From Octopus sinensis (lineage: Eukaryota): a stretch of DNA of 64,000 nt. Location of the stretch: the NCBI RefSeq assembly GCF_006345805.1, contig NC_043008.1, positions 36,518,001-36,582,000 on the forward strand. The letters run 5' to 3'. Under the pieces are notes generated by a model, which was not told the origin of the DNA, searched no databases, and saw only the letters and a program-made list of their open reading frames with translations. The translations under genes were made by a program, and so were the position numbers. Positions 19,516-57,042 of this stretch are shown here, one piece after another. Numbering within the stretch: position 1 is the stretch's first letter; every line of letters begins with the position of its first letter.

Positions 19516-20077
19516 AAGGCAGCGAGCTGGCAGAAACCTTAGCAAACCGGGCGAAATGCTTAGCGGTATTTCGTCTGCTGCTACGTTATGAGTTCAAATT
19601 CCGCTGAGGTCGACTTTGCCTTCCATCCTTTCGGGGTCGATTAAATAAATACCAGTTACACACTGGGGTCGATATAATCGACTTAATCCGTTTGTCTGTC
19701 CTTGTTTGTCCTCTGTGTTTAGCCCTTGTGGGTAGTAAAAAATAGGTATTTCGTCTGGTGTTACGTTCTGAGTTCAAATTCCGCTGAGGTCGACTTTGCC
19801 TTCCATCCTTTCGGGGTCGATTAAATAAATACCATTTACACACTGGGGTCGATATAATCGACTTAATCCGTTTGTCTGTCCTTGTTTGTCCTCTGTGTTT
19901 AGCCCCTTGTGGGTAGTAAAGAAATAGGTATTTCGTCTGGTGTTACGTTCTGAGTTCAACTTCCGTTGAGGTCGACTTTGCCTTTCATCCTTTCGGGGTC
20001 AATAAAATAAGTACCAGTTACGCACTGGGGTCGATGTAATCGACTTAATCCCTTTGTCTGCCATTGTTTGTCCCCCT
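19516..20077 (+). mobile_element. SINE-B with triplicated ~180-bp body
   Basis: One head (AAGGCAGCGAGCTGGCAG) followed by three units starting GGTATTTCGTCTG at ~19566, ~19745 and ~19927. Confidence 0.85.
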
Positions 20078-21060: not shown

Positions 21061-21296
21061 TCATATATATATACATGTATATATATATGTATATGTTAGT
21101 GTAATAAGTAGTATGTGTATTATGTAATGTTGTATGTAGTATGTATGTATGTATGTATGTATGTATGTACTACTTACGTATGTAATGTATGTATGTACGT
21201 ATTTATGTAGTGTATATATGTAAATATATATATATTATATATATATATATATAGTATATATATATAATATATATATAATATTATAAATATGAGTAT

Positions 21297-21299
<3 letters not shown>

Positions 21300-21327
<28 letters not shown>

Positions 21328-24300
21328 CTAGTTTCAGCTTATGAGCTGTGGCCATGCTGGGGCACCGCCATTTGGTGTTGCTACTTGGTTTCACTTCATG
21401 GAGGCTTTCTAGCACTGCTATTTGGTGCATGAGAGAGTTCGATGCAGCTGCCCTCATCTGCCCCTCCTGCCGTGAAGTTGGTTCATCTGGGACACCTGAC
21501 AGGAAGAGATCCAGCTTCATTTTAAAGACATCTGTATCCACCCCATGCAGGTCTCTCAGGTTCTTCGGGAGGATATTGAAGAGCTGTGGGCCTCGGAAGC
21601 CCAGGCTATCACAGAATCTTGTCCTACATCTTGATGGCAGGTTTGGAGTCCTAGGCACCACGCAGTGGCGCCCAGTTCTGGCATTTGCGTAACTCTCGAT
21701 GCCAAAGTTCAGGACACTTCCCTCCAGGATCTTCCAGATGTATATTATGGCATATCTTTCCCGCCTACGCTCCAGGGAATATATTTTAATCTCTTGAGTC
21801 TTTCCCAGTAGCTTACATTCTGCATAGAGGCTATCTTCTTTGTGTAGCTTCGTTGGATCGCCTCAAGTTCTGTGATCAACTTGACACTGGATGGTGACCA
21901 TAGCTGAGAGAAATAGTCAAAGTGGCTTAGGACAAGTGTCTTCCAGAGGACCATCATGGTTTCTTGTTCTCTGTTCTAAAGGTTCTAAGAATCCATCCAG
22001 CCAGCCGTCTACATTTCATTGTCAGTTTAGCAACATGTACATGAAAGGTCGCGTCATCACTCATGTGAATACCCAGGTCACGCACTGATTGTGCCTCTGG
22101 GATTGCAATCCCTCCGGGTCCAGTGTATTCCTTGGGTATTGCATTCAGTTTTGCATGCTGATAGTATAAAGCTTGAAACTTTCCAGCATTGAACTGCATG
22201 CTATTCTTTTCAGCCCACTTGTATATTTCGTCAAGCAGGTGCCTAGTGTCTTCAGGGTTCTGTATTGCCTGTGAAACTTTTGTATCATCTGCATAACTTG
22301 TGATCGTGGCTCTCTGCGTGGCTGAGGGCATGTCTGAGAGGGCCATTATGAACAGTAGTGGTCCCAGAACAGTGCCCTGCGGAACACCGCTCACTATTTG
22401 TGTGTTAATGGAGGTGGCCCCATTGGCTACTACCACCTGACTTCTATCCTTCAGAAAGTCATGAAGCCATTCTCCCAGTTTTCCAACTATGTTGAGATCA
22501 CGCAGTTTGTGACATATCATTCCATGATCGACTTTATCAAAGGCCTTTGCAAAGTCGAGATATATCACTTCCACATTTGAGTGGTTGAGCAGCCGTTTCA
22601 GCACCTCATAGTGTTGTAGGAGCTGAGTTAAACAGCTTCTCCCTGGTCGGAAACCATGTTGGGTGTCGGGCAGCAAGTCATTCTCTTCAAGGAAGGTGAT
22701 CAGCTTCCTTCTGACTATTCGTTCCATGACCTTGCTGATGTGTGAGGTCAGAGAGATAGGTCTATAGTTTCTTGGCTTCCGCTCTGCTACCTCCTTTATG
22801 AATGGGGCATATTTTACCTTCCTTCAGTTTTCCTGGAAGTTTGCCAGCTGCAAAGGAAGCTCTGAAAGAGGAACTGCAGTGGTCTTGCTAGGACTCTCTA
22901 CATGCTTTTAGGAGGATTGCCGGGAATCCATCGGGGCCAGTAGCTGAGTCTGTTTTCATTTCATCTATAGCCTTTGTTACATCGTCTTCCTTTATATCGA
23001 TGTAATCTATCGTCGCCGCCTCTGATTTTATATCTGCAGTGGTAAAAAGTCAGTTGGATGGTGATTTGGAGATGCCCAAGGGGTGGAGTGAAAACACTCT
23101 TGAATTGCTCATTCAGTATTTCACTTACCCTCATTGGTTTTCCTGTAAGTGTGCCATCCTTTTCGAGGAGTGGCCCTATTCTACAGTGCACTGTAGCTGT
23201 TTCTGTTTCTTTGGCATACCTGTAGAAAGCTCTGGGGTTAGATTTTATGTTTTCTATAGCCCAGGCTTCTTTGTCTGCTCTTTCTTTTCATGGGAGAGTT
23301 GCAGACATTTTTCGATTTCCAACAGTTTTATTTTTAGGCGGGACTTTTCACTGCTTCAATCTGTTTGTTTAGGCGATTTGAAAATTTCGTACGCCGTCTC
23401 ATTAAGATTTTCCTCTCTCTGGGGATTTTGTTCTTGTGTACAGTGGCCTTTCTCTCTGGGACACATTTGTAGCATATGGCTTGCATTACAGACATGAATT
23501 GTTGAAGTTTCACGTCGATGTCTGGCGAGGAGAGACATTTAGGCCAGTTTTGTTTGAGGATCTCTTTCTCAATTTGTTTCCAGTTTGCCTTATGGTTTCA
23601 AGCTGGAAAGATTTTGAGGGTTTCTTGTAGGCTGCATGTCCGTGCTCTCTTTTGGCCCGTACATGGTCAGCTCTATCATCTTGTGATCCGAGAGTAGTGT
23701 CGGTGTCACTTTCACATTATGGATGAGATCCATGTCATTTGTGAAGCAGAGATCCAGTGTGTTACCTGCCCTGGTTGGTTGGAGTATTACCTGCTCCATG
23801 TACAGGTGTTGATGAGGTTCAGGAGGAGACCTCGCCTGTCCTCGTTCACATCTTGTCATTCCTGGAGAGAAAGGCCCTCGGGCCATCTGACATTGGGCAG
23901 ATTGAAGTCTCCCATAAGAAGCACACCTATGTGTTGTTCTAATGTGGTTAGAATTTCTTCTATTTTTATAAGGCAGTCTTCAAACTTGCCCACATGGCTT
24001 GGGGCATCTGGAGGGCGATATGTAGCACACAAACTACATCAAGTTGCTTAATATGTACAATTAGTGTGTCACACACAGGTTTGAGTATGACAAGAGGACC
24101 TGGGGTGTGAGGTCCTCACGGATGTACATAGCAACACCTCCATGACTCCTTTCTTTCCTGTCGGTCCGTAGTACAGCATACTGTGGTATGTGTAACTCCG
24201 CATCTGCTATGTCCGGTTTCAGGTGCGTTTCTGTAAGTGCTATGCATATGGCTTGATTGCATGCAACAAAGTCTCTCAGGAACGGGATCTTTGTCCTGTT

Positions 24301-24350
24301 ACTGAGTGTTTGCAGTCCTCTGATGTTCAGTAGGAGTATCGAGGTGATAA
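21300..24350 (-). mobile_element. CR1-group LINE, nearly complete ORF2 (AP endonuclease plus RT), frameshifted pseudogene
   Basis: APE motifs LLNIRGL, IALTETHL, HGGVAMYI, GDFNLP, GNTLDLCF, SDH. RT motifs QHGFRPGRSC, YLDFAKAFDKV, GVPQGTVLGPLLF, YADDTK, VRDLG. (AATC)n tail. Confidence 0.95.
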
Positions 24351-24541: not shown

Positions 24542-24573
<32 letters not shown>

Positions 24574-24593
24574 CTATATATATATATATATAT

Positions 24594-24743
24594 CGCCAAG
24601 CTAACGTGGCAGTCCAGAGAAATAGGAATGCTGCTGTATGGACACAGATATGTGTCATATAGTTAGCTAGAGGCGATAGCTTCTTGGAGCTAATTAACGT
24701 CAGTATTCGTCCTATTTCTCTGGGCTGCCACGTAAACTTAGCG
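24594..24743 (+). repeat. 150-bp foldback element whose loop is the two-hairpin module of the hammerhead element at 56381-57033
   Basis: Imperfect ~34-bp terminal inverted repeat enclosing GACACAGATATGTGTC and AGTTAGCTAGAGGCGATAGCTTCTTGGAGCT; adjoins (TA)n. Confidence 0.7.
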
Positions 24744-24808
24744 TTAAATATTAATAACTAGTACTACTGCCATGTCTCTCCTTTAGAGAGATTTAGAAAT
24801 GATATTTC

Positions 24809-24851
<43 letters not shown>

Positions 24852-24924
24852 ATATATATATAACGGCCAATCAACACGCTGGAGTTTGGCTTTAACTGCT
24901 CTTTTTCCCTCTTCTTTGTCTTTA

Positions 24925-53911: not shown

Positions 53912-55564
53912 TCAGGTCATCTATAAGTTCTTCCGAATTTTGAATTAAAAAAAAACAAGTGATCAAATACTCTTTTACTCTTTTACTTGTTTCAGTCATT
54001 TGACTGTGGCCATGCTGGAGAACCGCCTTTAGTCGAGCAAATCGATCCCAGGACTTATTCTTTGTAAGCCTACTACTTATTCTATCAGTCTCTTTTGCCG
54101 AACCGCTAAGTTACGGGGACGTAAACAGACCAGCATTGGTTGTCAAGCGATGTTGGGGGGGGGCAAACACAGACACACATACATATATATATATAGATAT
54201 ATGCGACGGGCTTCTTTCAGTTTCCGTCTACCAAATCTACTCACGAGGCTTTGGTCGGCCCTAGGCCATAGTAGAAGACACTTGCTCAAGGTACCACGCA
54301 GTGGGACTGAACCCGGAACCATGTGGTTCGTATGCAAGCTACTTACCATACAGCCAGTCATCAATGTATTTTCCTAGATTATCTATGCCTTTCTTCTTTC
54401 TATTTACAAGCTTTTTAATCCCATCAATGTAAAACTCTTTTGGTTTCAAAGCGAAGAACTCTGAAATGTCAGGTTCGACCGCCTCCTGGCTTGCGAAATT
54501 TATGCCCCCCAAATGATTCTGTAAACAACGAAACAAATGGTAGTCTGAAGGAGCAAGGTCAGGAGAATAAGGTGGATGAGGAATTTTTTCCCAACCAAGC
54601 TCTTCGATCTTCTGTAATATGACCTTTGCATTGTGGGGTCGCTCATTGTCCTGATGAAGCATCACTCCTTTTCGATTCACTAAAGCGTTTTTTTTTCTTC
54701 AAAGCTTGGTTCAAACGCTCTAATTGCTGACAGTAGACTTGAGCATTGATTGTTGCATTAGGTGGTAACAATACAAATTGAATTACTCCTTTGAAATCAC
54801 ACCAGATAGAGAGAAGAACCTTTTTTCCATGAAGTTCCCTTCTCGGTTCTGGTTGAGCTTTTTCCCTTTTACTAAGCCACTATTTACGACGTTTAACATT
54901 TCGATAGAAGATCCATTTTTCGTCACCTGTCACAAGTCTATCAAAAAAAGGTGAAATGAGTTCGCGAGAATGGAGAGAAGAGCAGATGTCAACTCGGGAT
55001 TTACGGTTGCTTTCGGACAATTCATGAGACACTCATTTTCCAAGTTTAGGAACCTTTCCAAGTTGTTGAAGATGACAATGAACAGTTGTATGGTTTAAAC
55101 TAAACTTTATTGCCAATTCTTCAACTGATAATGCAGGATTTTCTTCAAGTAATGCCCCAAGGAGCTTATCCTCAAACTCAACTGGACGTCCTGTTCGATC
55201 TTCATCTTCAAGGCTGAAATCTACACTCCTGAATTTTGCAAACCATCTTCTCCAAGTTCTTTCATTGATGCATTATTTCCCATAAACTGAGTGTATGTTT
55301 CGAGTCGTTTCGGCTGCAGAGTTTCCTTTGTTGTACTCATAAAGCATTATGTGTCTTAAATGCTCTTTAGATACTTCCATGTTGGAAAGGGTTGTAATCA
55401 AAGAAATTTTAATTCTATTATTCTGTAAAATAATATTTAATTAGTTTAAATGTACACAAATGCATAAAAATAATTTTAAATTCCATTGGACATTCTAAAA
55501 TACTTTTAAATTTCATTCAATTTAAAAAAAGGTAAAATCGGACAGAACTTATGGGATGACCTGA
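53912..55564 (-). mobile_element. Full-length mariner (DD34D) transposon, transposase pseudogene
   Basis: ~29-bp TIRs TCAGGTCATC..; MEVSKEHLRHIMLYEY start at ~55380; VTGDEKW; HQDNERPH..HPPYSPDLAPSDYHLF with 34-residue spacing; stops and frameshifts. Confidence 0.93.
53970..54356 (-). mobile_element. SINE-A inserted at the mariner transposase C-terminus
   Basis: Homology to 1377-1826; the head abuts the KYIDD codons. Confidence 0.9.
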
Positions 55565-55666: not shown

Positions 55667-55895
55667 CGTGACCTGGTGGTTACCGCCCGTTGACAAGGGA
55701 CAAAAATCCTGAAACTAGTCCGAGCGTATCACTCAGGCTTGCGAGGAAGGGATGGCCTCCCTTTGCAAATACTTCAAGGGCACTGAAATGGTGTCTAAAG
55801 CCAGCTGGAGACGACGATCTCCTGGGGCTATATAGCTACAGTAACACCCCCTCCCCTATGTGGTTAGCCATATTAAGATGGCTTCTATACTTTAC

Positions 55896-55897
<2 letters not shown>
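55667..55897 (+). mobile_element. Diverged retrozyme-like element with decayed hammerhead
   Basis: CGCCCG-TTGACAA-GGGA/TCCT-GAAA-CTA-GTC-CGAGCG followed by sequence collinear with 56870-57020; flanked by (TA)n. Confidence 0.7.
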
Positions 55898-55929
<32 letters not shown>

Positions 55930-56380
55930 GTTTATAAATACATGCACAAATATATGCATACGTGTATATTTCGTAAGGTAATTGGGCCGATTACATCTAA
56001 TTTGAATCACGATTACATAAGATAATCAACGATAATATTTCAACTGTTAATAGGAGAGGCAGAATAATTCGAACGTAGTCCATCGAAATTTACAGGAACT
56101 TTATTCCATAATTCCCTTCCTGCGCTTGTGCGTTTTTATTTTTGTTTCAGTGGGCGTGCGGTTCAGTAGAGAGGTCAATGATGTAGTTTTTGAGGAAGTG
56201 TAACATTGAACTTACCAGAAAAAATGTTCATAAAATCGAGATTCATTTATTGGCTTAAAACTTCCTATATATGTATATTTATTTCTGATTAAAGGTGCGG
56301 TGTGTAACTCAGTACATAGGAGTGACACACAAACACACCCACCATATATTTAGATATATATATATATATATATATATATT

Positions 56381-57033
56381 AAACAATGATAAATCTTAGA
56401 GCGAGTTATAAACAGTAGCGGTAACACATCGTGACGCATATTTGCCATTTGAATATGGCTAATCCCTAAGGGTGGATGCTACTGTAGTTTGTAGCCCCAG
56501 GAAGATATCTCCTCCAGCTGGCTATAGACACACTATCTGTGTCCTCTCAGTATTTGTGAAGGGGAGTCATCCTCCCCGTCTTCAATTCATGATACACACG
56601 GACCCGAGTTTCAAGGTGTTTACCTTTCATCAGCATCCACCCTTAGGGGTTAGCCATATTCAAATGGCAAATATGCGTCACGATGTGTTACCGCTACTGT
56701 TTATAACTCGCTCTGAGATTTATCATTGTTTGATTTCACTTTTTCAATATCAGTGTCAATCGACACTGGAAAAAGTATATGTATTTGTGAAGGGAGCTGA
56801 CTTCTCGTCGACAACCATGATTGTCACACGCTGATGAAAGGTAAACACCTTGAAACTCGGGTCCGTGTGTATCATGAGTTGAAGACGGGGAGGATGACTC
56901 CCCTTCACAAATACTGAGAGGACACAGATAGTGTGTCTATAGCCAGCTGGAGGAGATATCTTCCTGGGGCTACAAACTACAGTAGCATCCACCCTTAGGG
57001 GTTAGCCATATTCAAATGGCAAATATGCGTCAC
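56381..57033 (+). mobile_element. Retrozyme-like (hammerhead-containing, non-coding) retroelement: 352-nt permuted unit plus inverted partial copy
   Basis: 50-bp direct repeat 56632-56681/56984-57033 (period 352). 56381-56634 is the reverse complement of 56830-56983 joined to 56632-56731, with 3 mismatches. Flanked by (TA)n. Confidence 0.8.
56825..56869 (+). ncRNA. Canonical type I hammerhead ribozyme
   Basis: Stem I CACACG/CGUGUG, CUGAUGA, stem II AAGGU-AAAC-ACCUU, GAAA, short near-palindromic stem III ACUCGGGU, GUC cleavage triplet (56861-56863). Confidence 0.9.
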
Positions 57034-57042
57034 TATATATAT

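Follow-up and report, generated by a model that had tools for sequence, protein, structure and literature searches.

The three loci at which a two-hairpin RNA module had been noticed in the analysed window (the whole 64,000-nucleotide stretch of the Octopus sinensis genome) are, to judge by their sequences, subfamily copies of one non-LTR retrozyme with ~350–365-nt units, a type I hammerhead and up to ~50% divergence. Covariation shows that the module is real, constrained RNA structure, which a G-U bias places on the hammerhead strand. Since it lies in a conserved fold beside the insertion ends, we consider it somewhat probable that, in these diverged retrozyme subfamilies, the module is a protein-docking surface that serves when a borrowed Penelope-type reverse transcriptase (RT) copies the RNA in trans.

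The preliminary description had placed the module at three loci. It is present at each of them on the plus strand, and the 64-kb window holds a fourth copy on the minus strand:

24641-24691, plus strand: whole module, copy A
24641..24656, plus strand: P1 hairpin of the module, copy A
24661..24691, plus strand: module arm P2 / 4x3 internal loop / P3, copy A
55779..55829, plus strand: module in insertion B
56920..56971, plus strand: module in insertion C, direct arm
about 56493-56544, minus strand: module in insertion C, inverted arm (absent from the earlier list)

The module pattern had no match in 100 Markov-resampled windows. Across the 2.72-Gb genome, the loop-and-stem pattern matched exactly 9,745 times (versus 6 times with the reversed control), a pattern-based count that may miss more distant families. 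Folding z-scores of the module region on the plus strand were −3.0 (A), −0.4 (B) and −3.1 (C). The pattern also matched 53 times in metagenome and 9 times in viral contigs, always without a hammerhead upstream and in GC-richer sequence; these are chance matches.

The loop strands and the downstream CAGTA had been described as invariant, and none of them is. Among 30 hammerhead-anchored representatives, the 5' loop strand was AGCT in only 18 (otherwise ATCT, AACT, AACA, ATCA, GACA, TATCT or CTTCT, with one of the 30 mis-parsed), while the 3' strand was TGG in 27 and TAG in 3; the loop consensus is 5'-ANCW / URG-3'. Most relatives of the 24594 copy carry CAGCA. Within the module arm the 3' strand is the better-conserved side, and its CYURGRGCUA is conserved beyond pairing needs (three columns at 61/61, in a set that is partly pattern-selected).

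The carriers of the module had been taken for otherwise different elements. Instead, lineages A, B and C align across the whole unit, from the hammerhead through the 3' end, and belong to a continuum of subfamilies that diverge by up to about 50%, to which looser hammerhead searches added further lineages. That is, the module is shared by descent within one retrozyme superfamily and not among independent elements. A first look by BLAST gave 761, 2,190 and 1,919 candidates for the three loci (40 scored for each). The hammerhead pattern matched 2,883 times genome-wide (versus 0 for the control), and the module lay downstream in all 30 loci chosen by hammerhead pattern alone (21 by the strict pattern, 9 variants read by eye), some of which are the two arms of a single insertion. 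A hammerhead was found in every retrozyme lineage examined, with core and stems that appear intact; its U3-A8 core in lineages A and B is a covariation already published (PMC4209133, in part). Natural arrays have monomers of 348, 352, 355, 361 and 365 nt, and copies that extend beyond the second of two insertion ends (end 2, see below) run on into the next unit, with no LTR. No unit-borne RT or endonuclease was found in the retrozyme loci, and a degraded RT fragment that adjoins one copy had no match in a protein search. Assembled contigs from four sequencing runs of uncertain kind (four organism labels) match the retrozyme unit and are uninformative on expression, strand and circles.

The retrozyme class and its Penelope link are already known in print, the non-LTR class being defined in PMC7229834 and bioRxiv 10.64898/2026.07.22.740005 (both in part). 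Like the metazoan non-LTR retrozymes of these excerpts, the octopus units are non-coding, ~350 nt long and equipped with one canonical type I hammerhead each; shared too are tandem copies, a predicted self-paired circle and co-occurring Penelope-like elements. The excerpts describe no conserved covarying non-ribozyme domain, and they report long arrays, whereas the octopus copies are mostly dispersed, truncated or head-to-head (tandem in 2/67). For the octopus retrozyme, cleavage and circular RNA are predictions from sequence.

The retrozyme insertions read as Penelope-type, with (TA)n targets, 5' inverted arms and two fixed 3' ends. Among 201 module contexts, a sample partly selected by BLAST, 75 stop 65–74 nt and 71 stop 105–124 nt past the module, so that 146/201 fall into two clusters (end 1, the main insertion end, and end 2). 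The clusters are about 45–55 nt apart; the published tail, with 30–40 bp, is slightly shorter. On one contig (C1), 67 position-ordered insertions included 27 that retain the hammerhead and 30 with (TA)5 at the 3' end, besides 13 head-to-head module pairs and 2 tandem insertions. Insertions A and C both have an inverted 5' arm and a 5' truncation. Penelope insertions are recognised by an inverted 5' arm, an optional tail and a bias to (TA)n (PMC8557442, in part), and Penelope RT initiates internally within a stem-loop, the tail reflecting two internal start sites (PMC11167929, in part). Like the pseudo-LTRs of EN+ Penelope-like elements of the Neptune/Nematis type, as available excerpts of PMC8557442, PMC4209133 and PMC11167929 present them, the retrozyme has a hammerhead close to its 3' end (the U3-A8 core included), targets (TA)n and shows an inverted 5' arm as well as two 3' ends about one tail apart. 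It differs in having no ORF and a canonical hammerhead, where theirs is minimal.

At the 24594 locus, the order is (TA)n, a 40-nt inverted self-copy, a 5'-truncated direct arm and (TA)n:

24542..24593: (TA)n target, left flank of A
24594..24633, minus strand: 5' inverted arm of A, the reverse complement of 24701-24743, which stops near insertion end 1
24638..24812, plus strand: 5'-truncated retrozyme unit of lineage A, from just before the module to end 2, hammerhead lost
24812..24862: (TA)n target, right flank of A

The unit is 78% identical over 180 nt to a natural 361-nt monomer in L193 (positions 57-235). The preliminary description had seen here a long foldback capped by the module. The foldback of 24594-24743 exists (folding z=−11.6), but its closing stem GAATGCTG/CAGTATTC repeats segment 24701-24743 of the same element in inverted form and is foreign to the native unit. 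The long foldback thus arose by insertion, and this copy lost its hammerhead by 5' truncation. Likewise, the reported absence of a hammerhead is true of this truncated copy, where our search at the locus found none, but not of its relatives, which occur as tandem 361-nt units and in which a type I hammerhead precedes the module by about 115 nt. A false lead is thereby removed: 24594 is neither a new ribozyme nor a hammerhead-free element. The (TA)n of insertion A lies about 200 nt 5' of a decayed LINE (window 21281-24340, minus strand) whose RVT_1 domain occupies 21957-22823 (E=2e-32) and whose endonuclease-like part reaches about 24340.

Insertions B and C retain hammerhead sequence:

55667..55897, plus strand: insertion B, 5'-truncated unit (lineage B), stops at end 1
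55672..55742, plus strand: type I hammerhead of B, U3-A8 core variant (Rfam HH9, E=2e-5, 28.5 bits, below the gathering score of 52)
55898-55926: (TA)n after B
56378..56634, minus strand: insertion C, inverted arm, stops at end 2; module and a hammerhead core with disrupted stem I
56632..57036, plus strand: insertion C, direct arm, more than one 352-nt unit, stops at end 1
56825..56869, plus strand: canonical type I hammerhead of C, C3-G8 core

Locus C is head-to-head like the 24594 locus, each arm stopping at a different one of the two sites, and its direct arm is 99.7% identical to a natural monomer (L027) with a tandem spacing of 352. Other repeats of the window are a broken transposase with several stops at about 54560-55380 (minus strand), which we take from translated motifs to be mariner-like, and a 180-bp unit, probably a SINE-like repeat, with 2.8 tandem copies at 19565-20073 (94% alike) and dispersed inverted copies elsewhere in the window.

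We then considered the RNA fold. Across 26 representatives, the 32 proposed pairs were 90.1% paired (versus 84.3% when shuffled and 34–43% in slid register), with double changes in 13/32 pairs. A 60-row alignment (A5) showed double changes in 12/16 module pairs, a count biased toward structure since A5 was fitted to the covariance model. Because the copies are related, changes were mapped on a tree, leaving out one misaligned locus (L199). For all helices, the ratio of pair-keeping to pair-breaking changes was 23:7 on internal versus 19:44 on leaf branches (p=4e-5), and for the module alone 14:2 versus 14:16 (p=0.01). Independent double changes on internal branches numbered 9, only 4 of them in the module. 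The earlier observation that pairing is kept while stems differ thus stands, also in larger alignments and on the tree.

It could be argued that the pairing is merely inherited from a common ancestor whose constraint has gone, since all copies come from one superfamily and several double changes sit on one deep split. We regard this as very unlikely: changes that are inherited preserve pairing much more often than changes private to one copy, also for the module by itself, the slid-register controls fall far below the proposed pairing, and wobble pairs recur. On the hammerhead strand, 47 non-independent rows (excluding 13 mis-registered or truncated rows and one duplicate) contained 53 G-U versus 15 A-C; G-U recurred in 7/15 pairs and A-C in none. 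This excess places the constraint on the RNA of the hammerhead strand. It also makes a DNA-level signal, either an internal promoter or a cDNA hairpin, highly improbable, although retrozymes need transcription from inside arrays (PMC6765202, in part) and many copies have an 8-nt palindrome across the loop; several lineages have lost that palindrome. An intermolecular pairing through the palindrome was dropped because several lineages break it. With covariation enriched on inherited branches and the G-U bias favouring the hammerhead strand, the proposal of a functional cis-acting RNA domain is supported.

The CAGTA motif pairs over a long range with a strand on the far side of end 1. It supplies the 5' strand of the resulting 8-bp helix, P4, which encloses the main insertion end:

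24697..24704, plus strand: P4 5' strand, copy A; contains the CAGT of the preliminary description
24766..24773, plus strand: P4 3' strand, copy A, past insertion end 1; 6/8 pairs kept in this decayed copy

P4 covaries at three internal-branch positions. Its 20 distinct strand pairs form 6.55 of 8 Watson-Crick pairs versus 5.16 on permutation (0/10,000 permutations reached this), in a test that is not tree-aware and with 2/28 rows off-register. RNAalifold on alignment A2 recovered P1–P3 but not P4–P6; P4 is based on manual pairing, pair counts and single-sequence folds, which give it in full or in part in 4/5 monomers. We rejected a three-way junction with TACTG/CAGTA as its closing strands: only some lineages have the upstream partner, whereas the downstream partner covaries. 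One lineage (L199, L284, L299, L307, L308, L311, L312) combines a 5-nt loop strand with a pyrimidine-rich insert in the P4 loop, and another (L300, L302, L315, L330) the TAG loop strand with a fully exchanged P4; both are natural variants useful for mutagenesis.

Folded as circles, five natural monomers were predicted to share a similar architecture, a rod with the hammerhead at one end and a multibranched head at the other. The predicted head holds module P1 and P2/P3, the P4 domain around end 1 and two further hairpins; in the minimum-energy structure predicted for the 365-nt monomer, P1 and P4 differ. Given this shared architecture, the module would be two arms of a conserved whole-unit fold rather than a standalone domain.

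The module had also been suggested to be an uncharacterised catalytic motif. Catalysis appears unlikely, given a variable loop, conservation of only about four unpaired letters and the lack of a matching ribozyme family. Rfam 15 covariance models (twister, pistol, hatchet, HDV, hairpin, SRP, tRNA etc.) gave no match on the module at E up to 10, in agreement with the earlier failure to see twister, pistol, hatchet or HDV likeness by eye. Near the module, the Rfam matches were the adjacent hammerhead (HH9) and chance-level hairpins only; window-wide, none fell on the module among the matches listed (150 of 177). A resemblance to structural-RNA SINE heads was considered and dropped, being without Rfam support. 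With twister-sister-like (lantern) and hairpin ribozymes, as far as excerpts of PMC11620745 and PMC8216279 describe them, the module shares an internal loop between two covarying stems. However, its loop is 4x3 (5x3 in one lineage) and not the 5x6 of the twister-sister-like ribozyme, the conserved CA cleavage step described in PMC11620745 is missing, there is no second docking loop, and the loop sequence is variable. A second, undescribed self-cleaving or ligating ribozyme could draw on the existence of very small internal-loop ribozymes (PMC11620745, in part) and on the A and C retained on one loop strand and the U and G on the other. But the loop also permits a helical reading with one U-U or A-U pair, one C-G pair and a bulge, and the unit already has its hammerhead, which together with the Rfam result and the loop geometry leaves such a ribozyme extremely improbable.

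Are there enzymes that could copy the retrozyme? Intact Penelope-like ORFs with RT and GIY-YIG domains, 775–781 aa long and preceded by an upstream ORF, occur in the genome (L254-L258), among them:

L257:2032-4374, plus strand: intact Penelope-like ORF
L256:2745-5069, minus strand: intact Penelope-like ORF

These ORFs have a Cys-rich linker and are of the Neptune/Nematis type as the available part of PMC8557442 defines it; their proteins are candidate mobilising enzymes for the retrozyme. Copies of these elements stop at (TA)n. Their AT-rich 3' ends contain minimal hammerheads and, optionally, a tail of ~35 nt, which holds a small hairpin resembling the tail hairpin of the retrozyme. A covariance model did not find the module in the 3' ends of autonomous elements at 38 Penelope-like loci; strong matches occurred in L108, L118 and L256 only, all of them separate retrozyme insertions. 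From hammerhead to end 1, the best-sampled autonomous family has 69–78 AT-rich nt versus about 173 nt in the retrozyme, which thus carries about 100 extra structured nt, including the module, that the sampled autonomous Penelope-like elements of the genome are without. Given this short spacing, the autonomous enzyme needs no module in cis; taken together with the absence of the module, this means that the module does not simply imitate the 3' ends of the autonomous elements sampled. A search for a partner element whose terminal repeat is homologous found none. Penelope-like protein fragments occurred in 8/185 retrozyme loci, those inspected being separate insertions, and at the sampled loci the retrozyme repeat did not flank an RT-GIY-YIG ORF as an autonomous pseudo-LTR does. 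The mobilising partner may be an unsampled element.

The absence of the module from the autonomous 3' ends sampled makes a role with a host factor or in circRNA stability a serious rival to enzyme docking. The module could be a retrozyme-specific structural or host-protein-binding arm for the circular-RNA stage, acting in stability, ligation by a host ligase, localisation or silencing of the hammerhead in the circle, rather than in enzyme recruitment. It belongs to just those ~100 nt, between hammerhead and end 1, that retrozymes have beyond autonomous elements, the whole circle is predicted to fold alike in the five monomers, and PMC7229834, in its available part, argues that the hammerhead block in metazoan circles needs more than self-pairing. 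Yet the spacing of the module to both insertion ends is fixed, it shares its multibranch head with the start-site helix P4, and on the predicted rod it lies opposite the hammerhead, with no covarying contact seen between the two. We regard a circular-stage role as possible but rather unlikely.

Our preferred reading remains docking in trans, and an RT-recognition signal, as the preliminary description had suggested, is plausible from position: the covarying arms of the module lie 65–70 nt upstream of end 1, and this position, like the conservation, would suit an arm on which a protein docks for target-primed copying. In this reading, transcripts of tandem units would cleave themselves, probably in dimeric form, and circularise. 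The monomer would form a rod capped by the hammerhead and a multibranched head of P1, P2/P3, the P4 domain and two hairpins. A Penelope-type enzyme would nick (TA)n, and reverse transcription would start internally, either at end 1 (within the P4-closed loop) or at end 2, about 45–55 nt further 3'; such starts would yield head-to-head, tailed insertions. The module may help this non-coding RNA to capture the Penelope-type enzyme in trans, directly or via an adaptor. SINE heads and stem-loops capture LINE enzymes for their RNAs in a similar manner. Tentatively, and with more doubt, animal retrozymes in general may possess a dedicated non-catalytic RNA head (P1, P2/P3, P4) that captures a telomerase-like RT in trans and fixes the two start sites. 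The head domain would then be the counterpart of a SINE head, absent from autonomous Penelope-like elements, and, if this holds true, the first structural handle on template choice by Penelope enzymes.

In the literature we found no description of the present retrozyme family or module, nor of a covarying non-ribozyme domain in animal retrozymes; published supplementary retrozyme sequences (mussel and others, PMC7229834; bioRxiv 10.64898/2026.07.22.740005; both available in part) may bear on this point. In the publications consulted, recognition and copying of animal retrozymes are still a hypothesis. Since one genome here combines a fold supported by covariation with two mapped start sites and with intact candidate enzymes, the recognition question is directly testable, and an in vitro Penelope assay is published (PMC11167929, in part).

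The retrozyme itself appears as the target of another element. An APE-RT LINE (Pfam Exo_endo_phos and RVT_1), presumably of the L1/Tx1 type, uses a single insertion site, some 26 nt 5' of the hammerhead core, in many subfamilies of the retrozyme (L314-L343; L086, L089, L043, L054). At the fetched LINE 3' ends, the target motif followed next in 30/30 and a module match in 28/30, and in L089 the insertion is accompanied by a ~17-bp target duplication.
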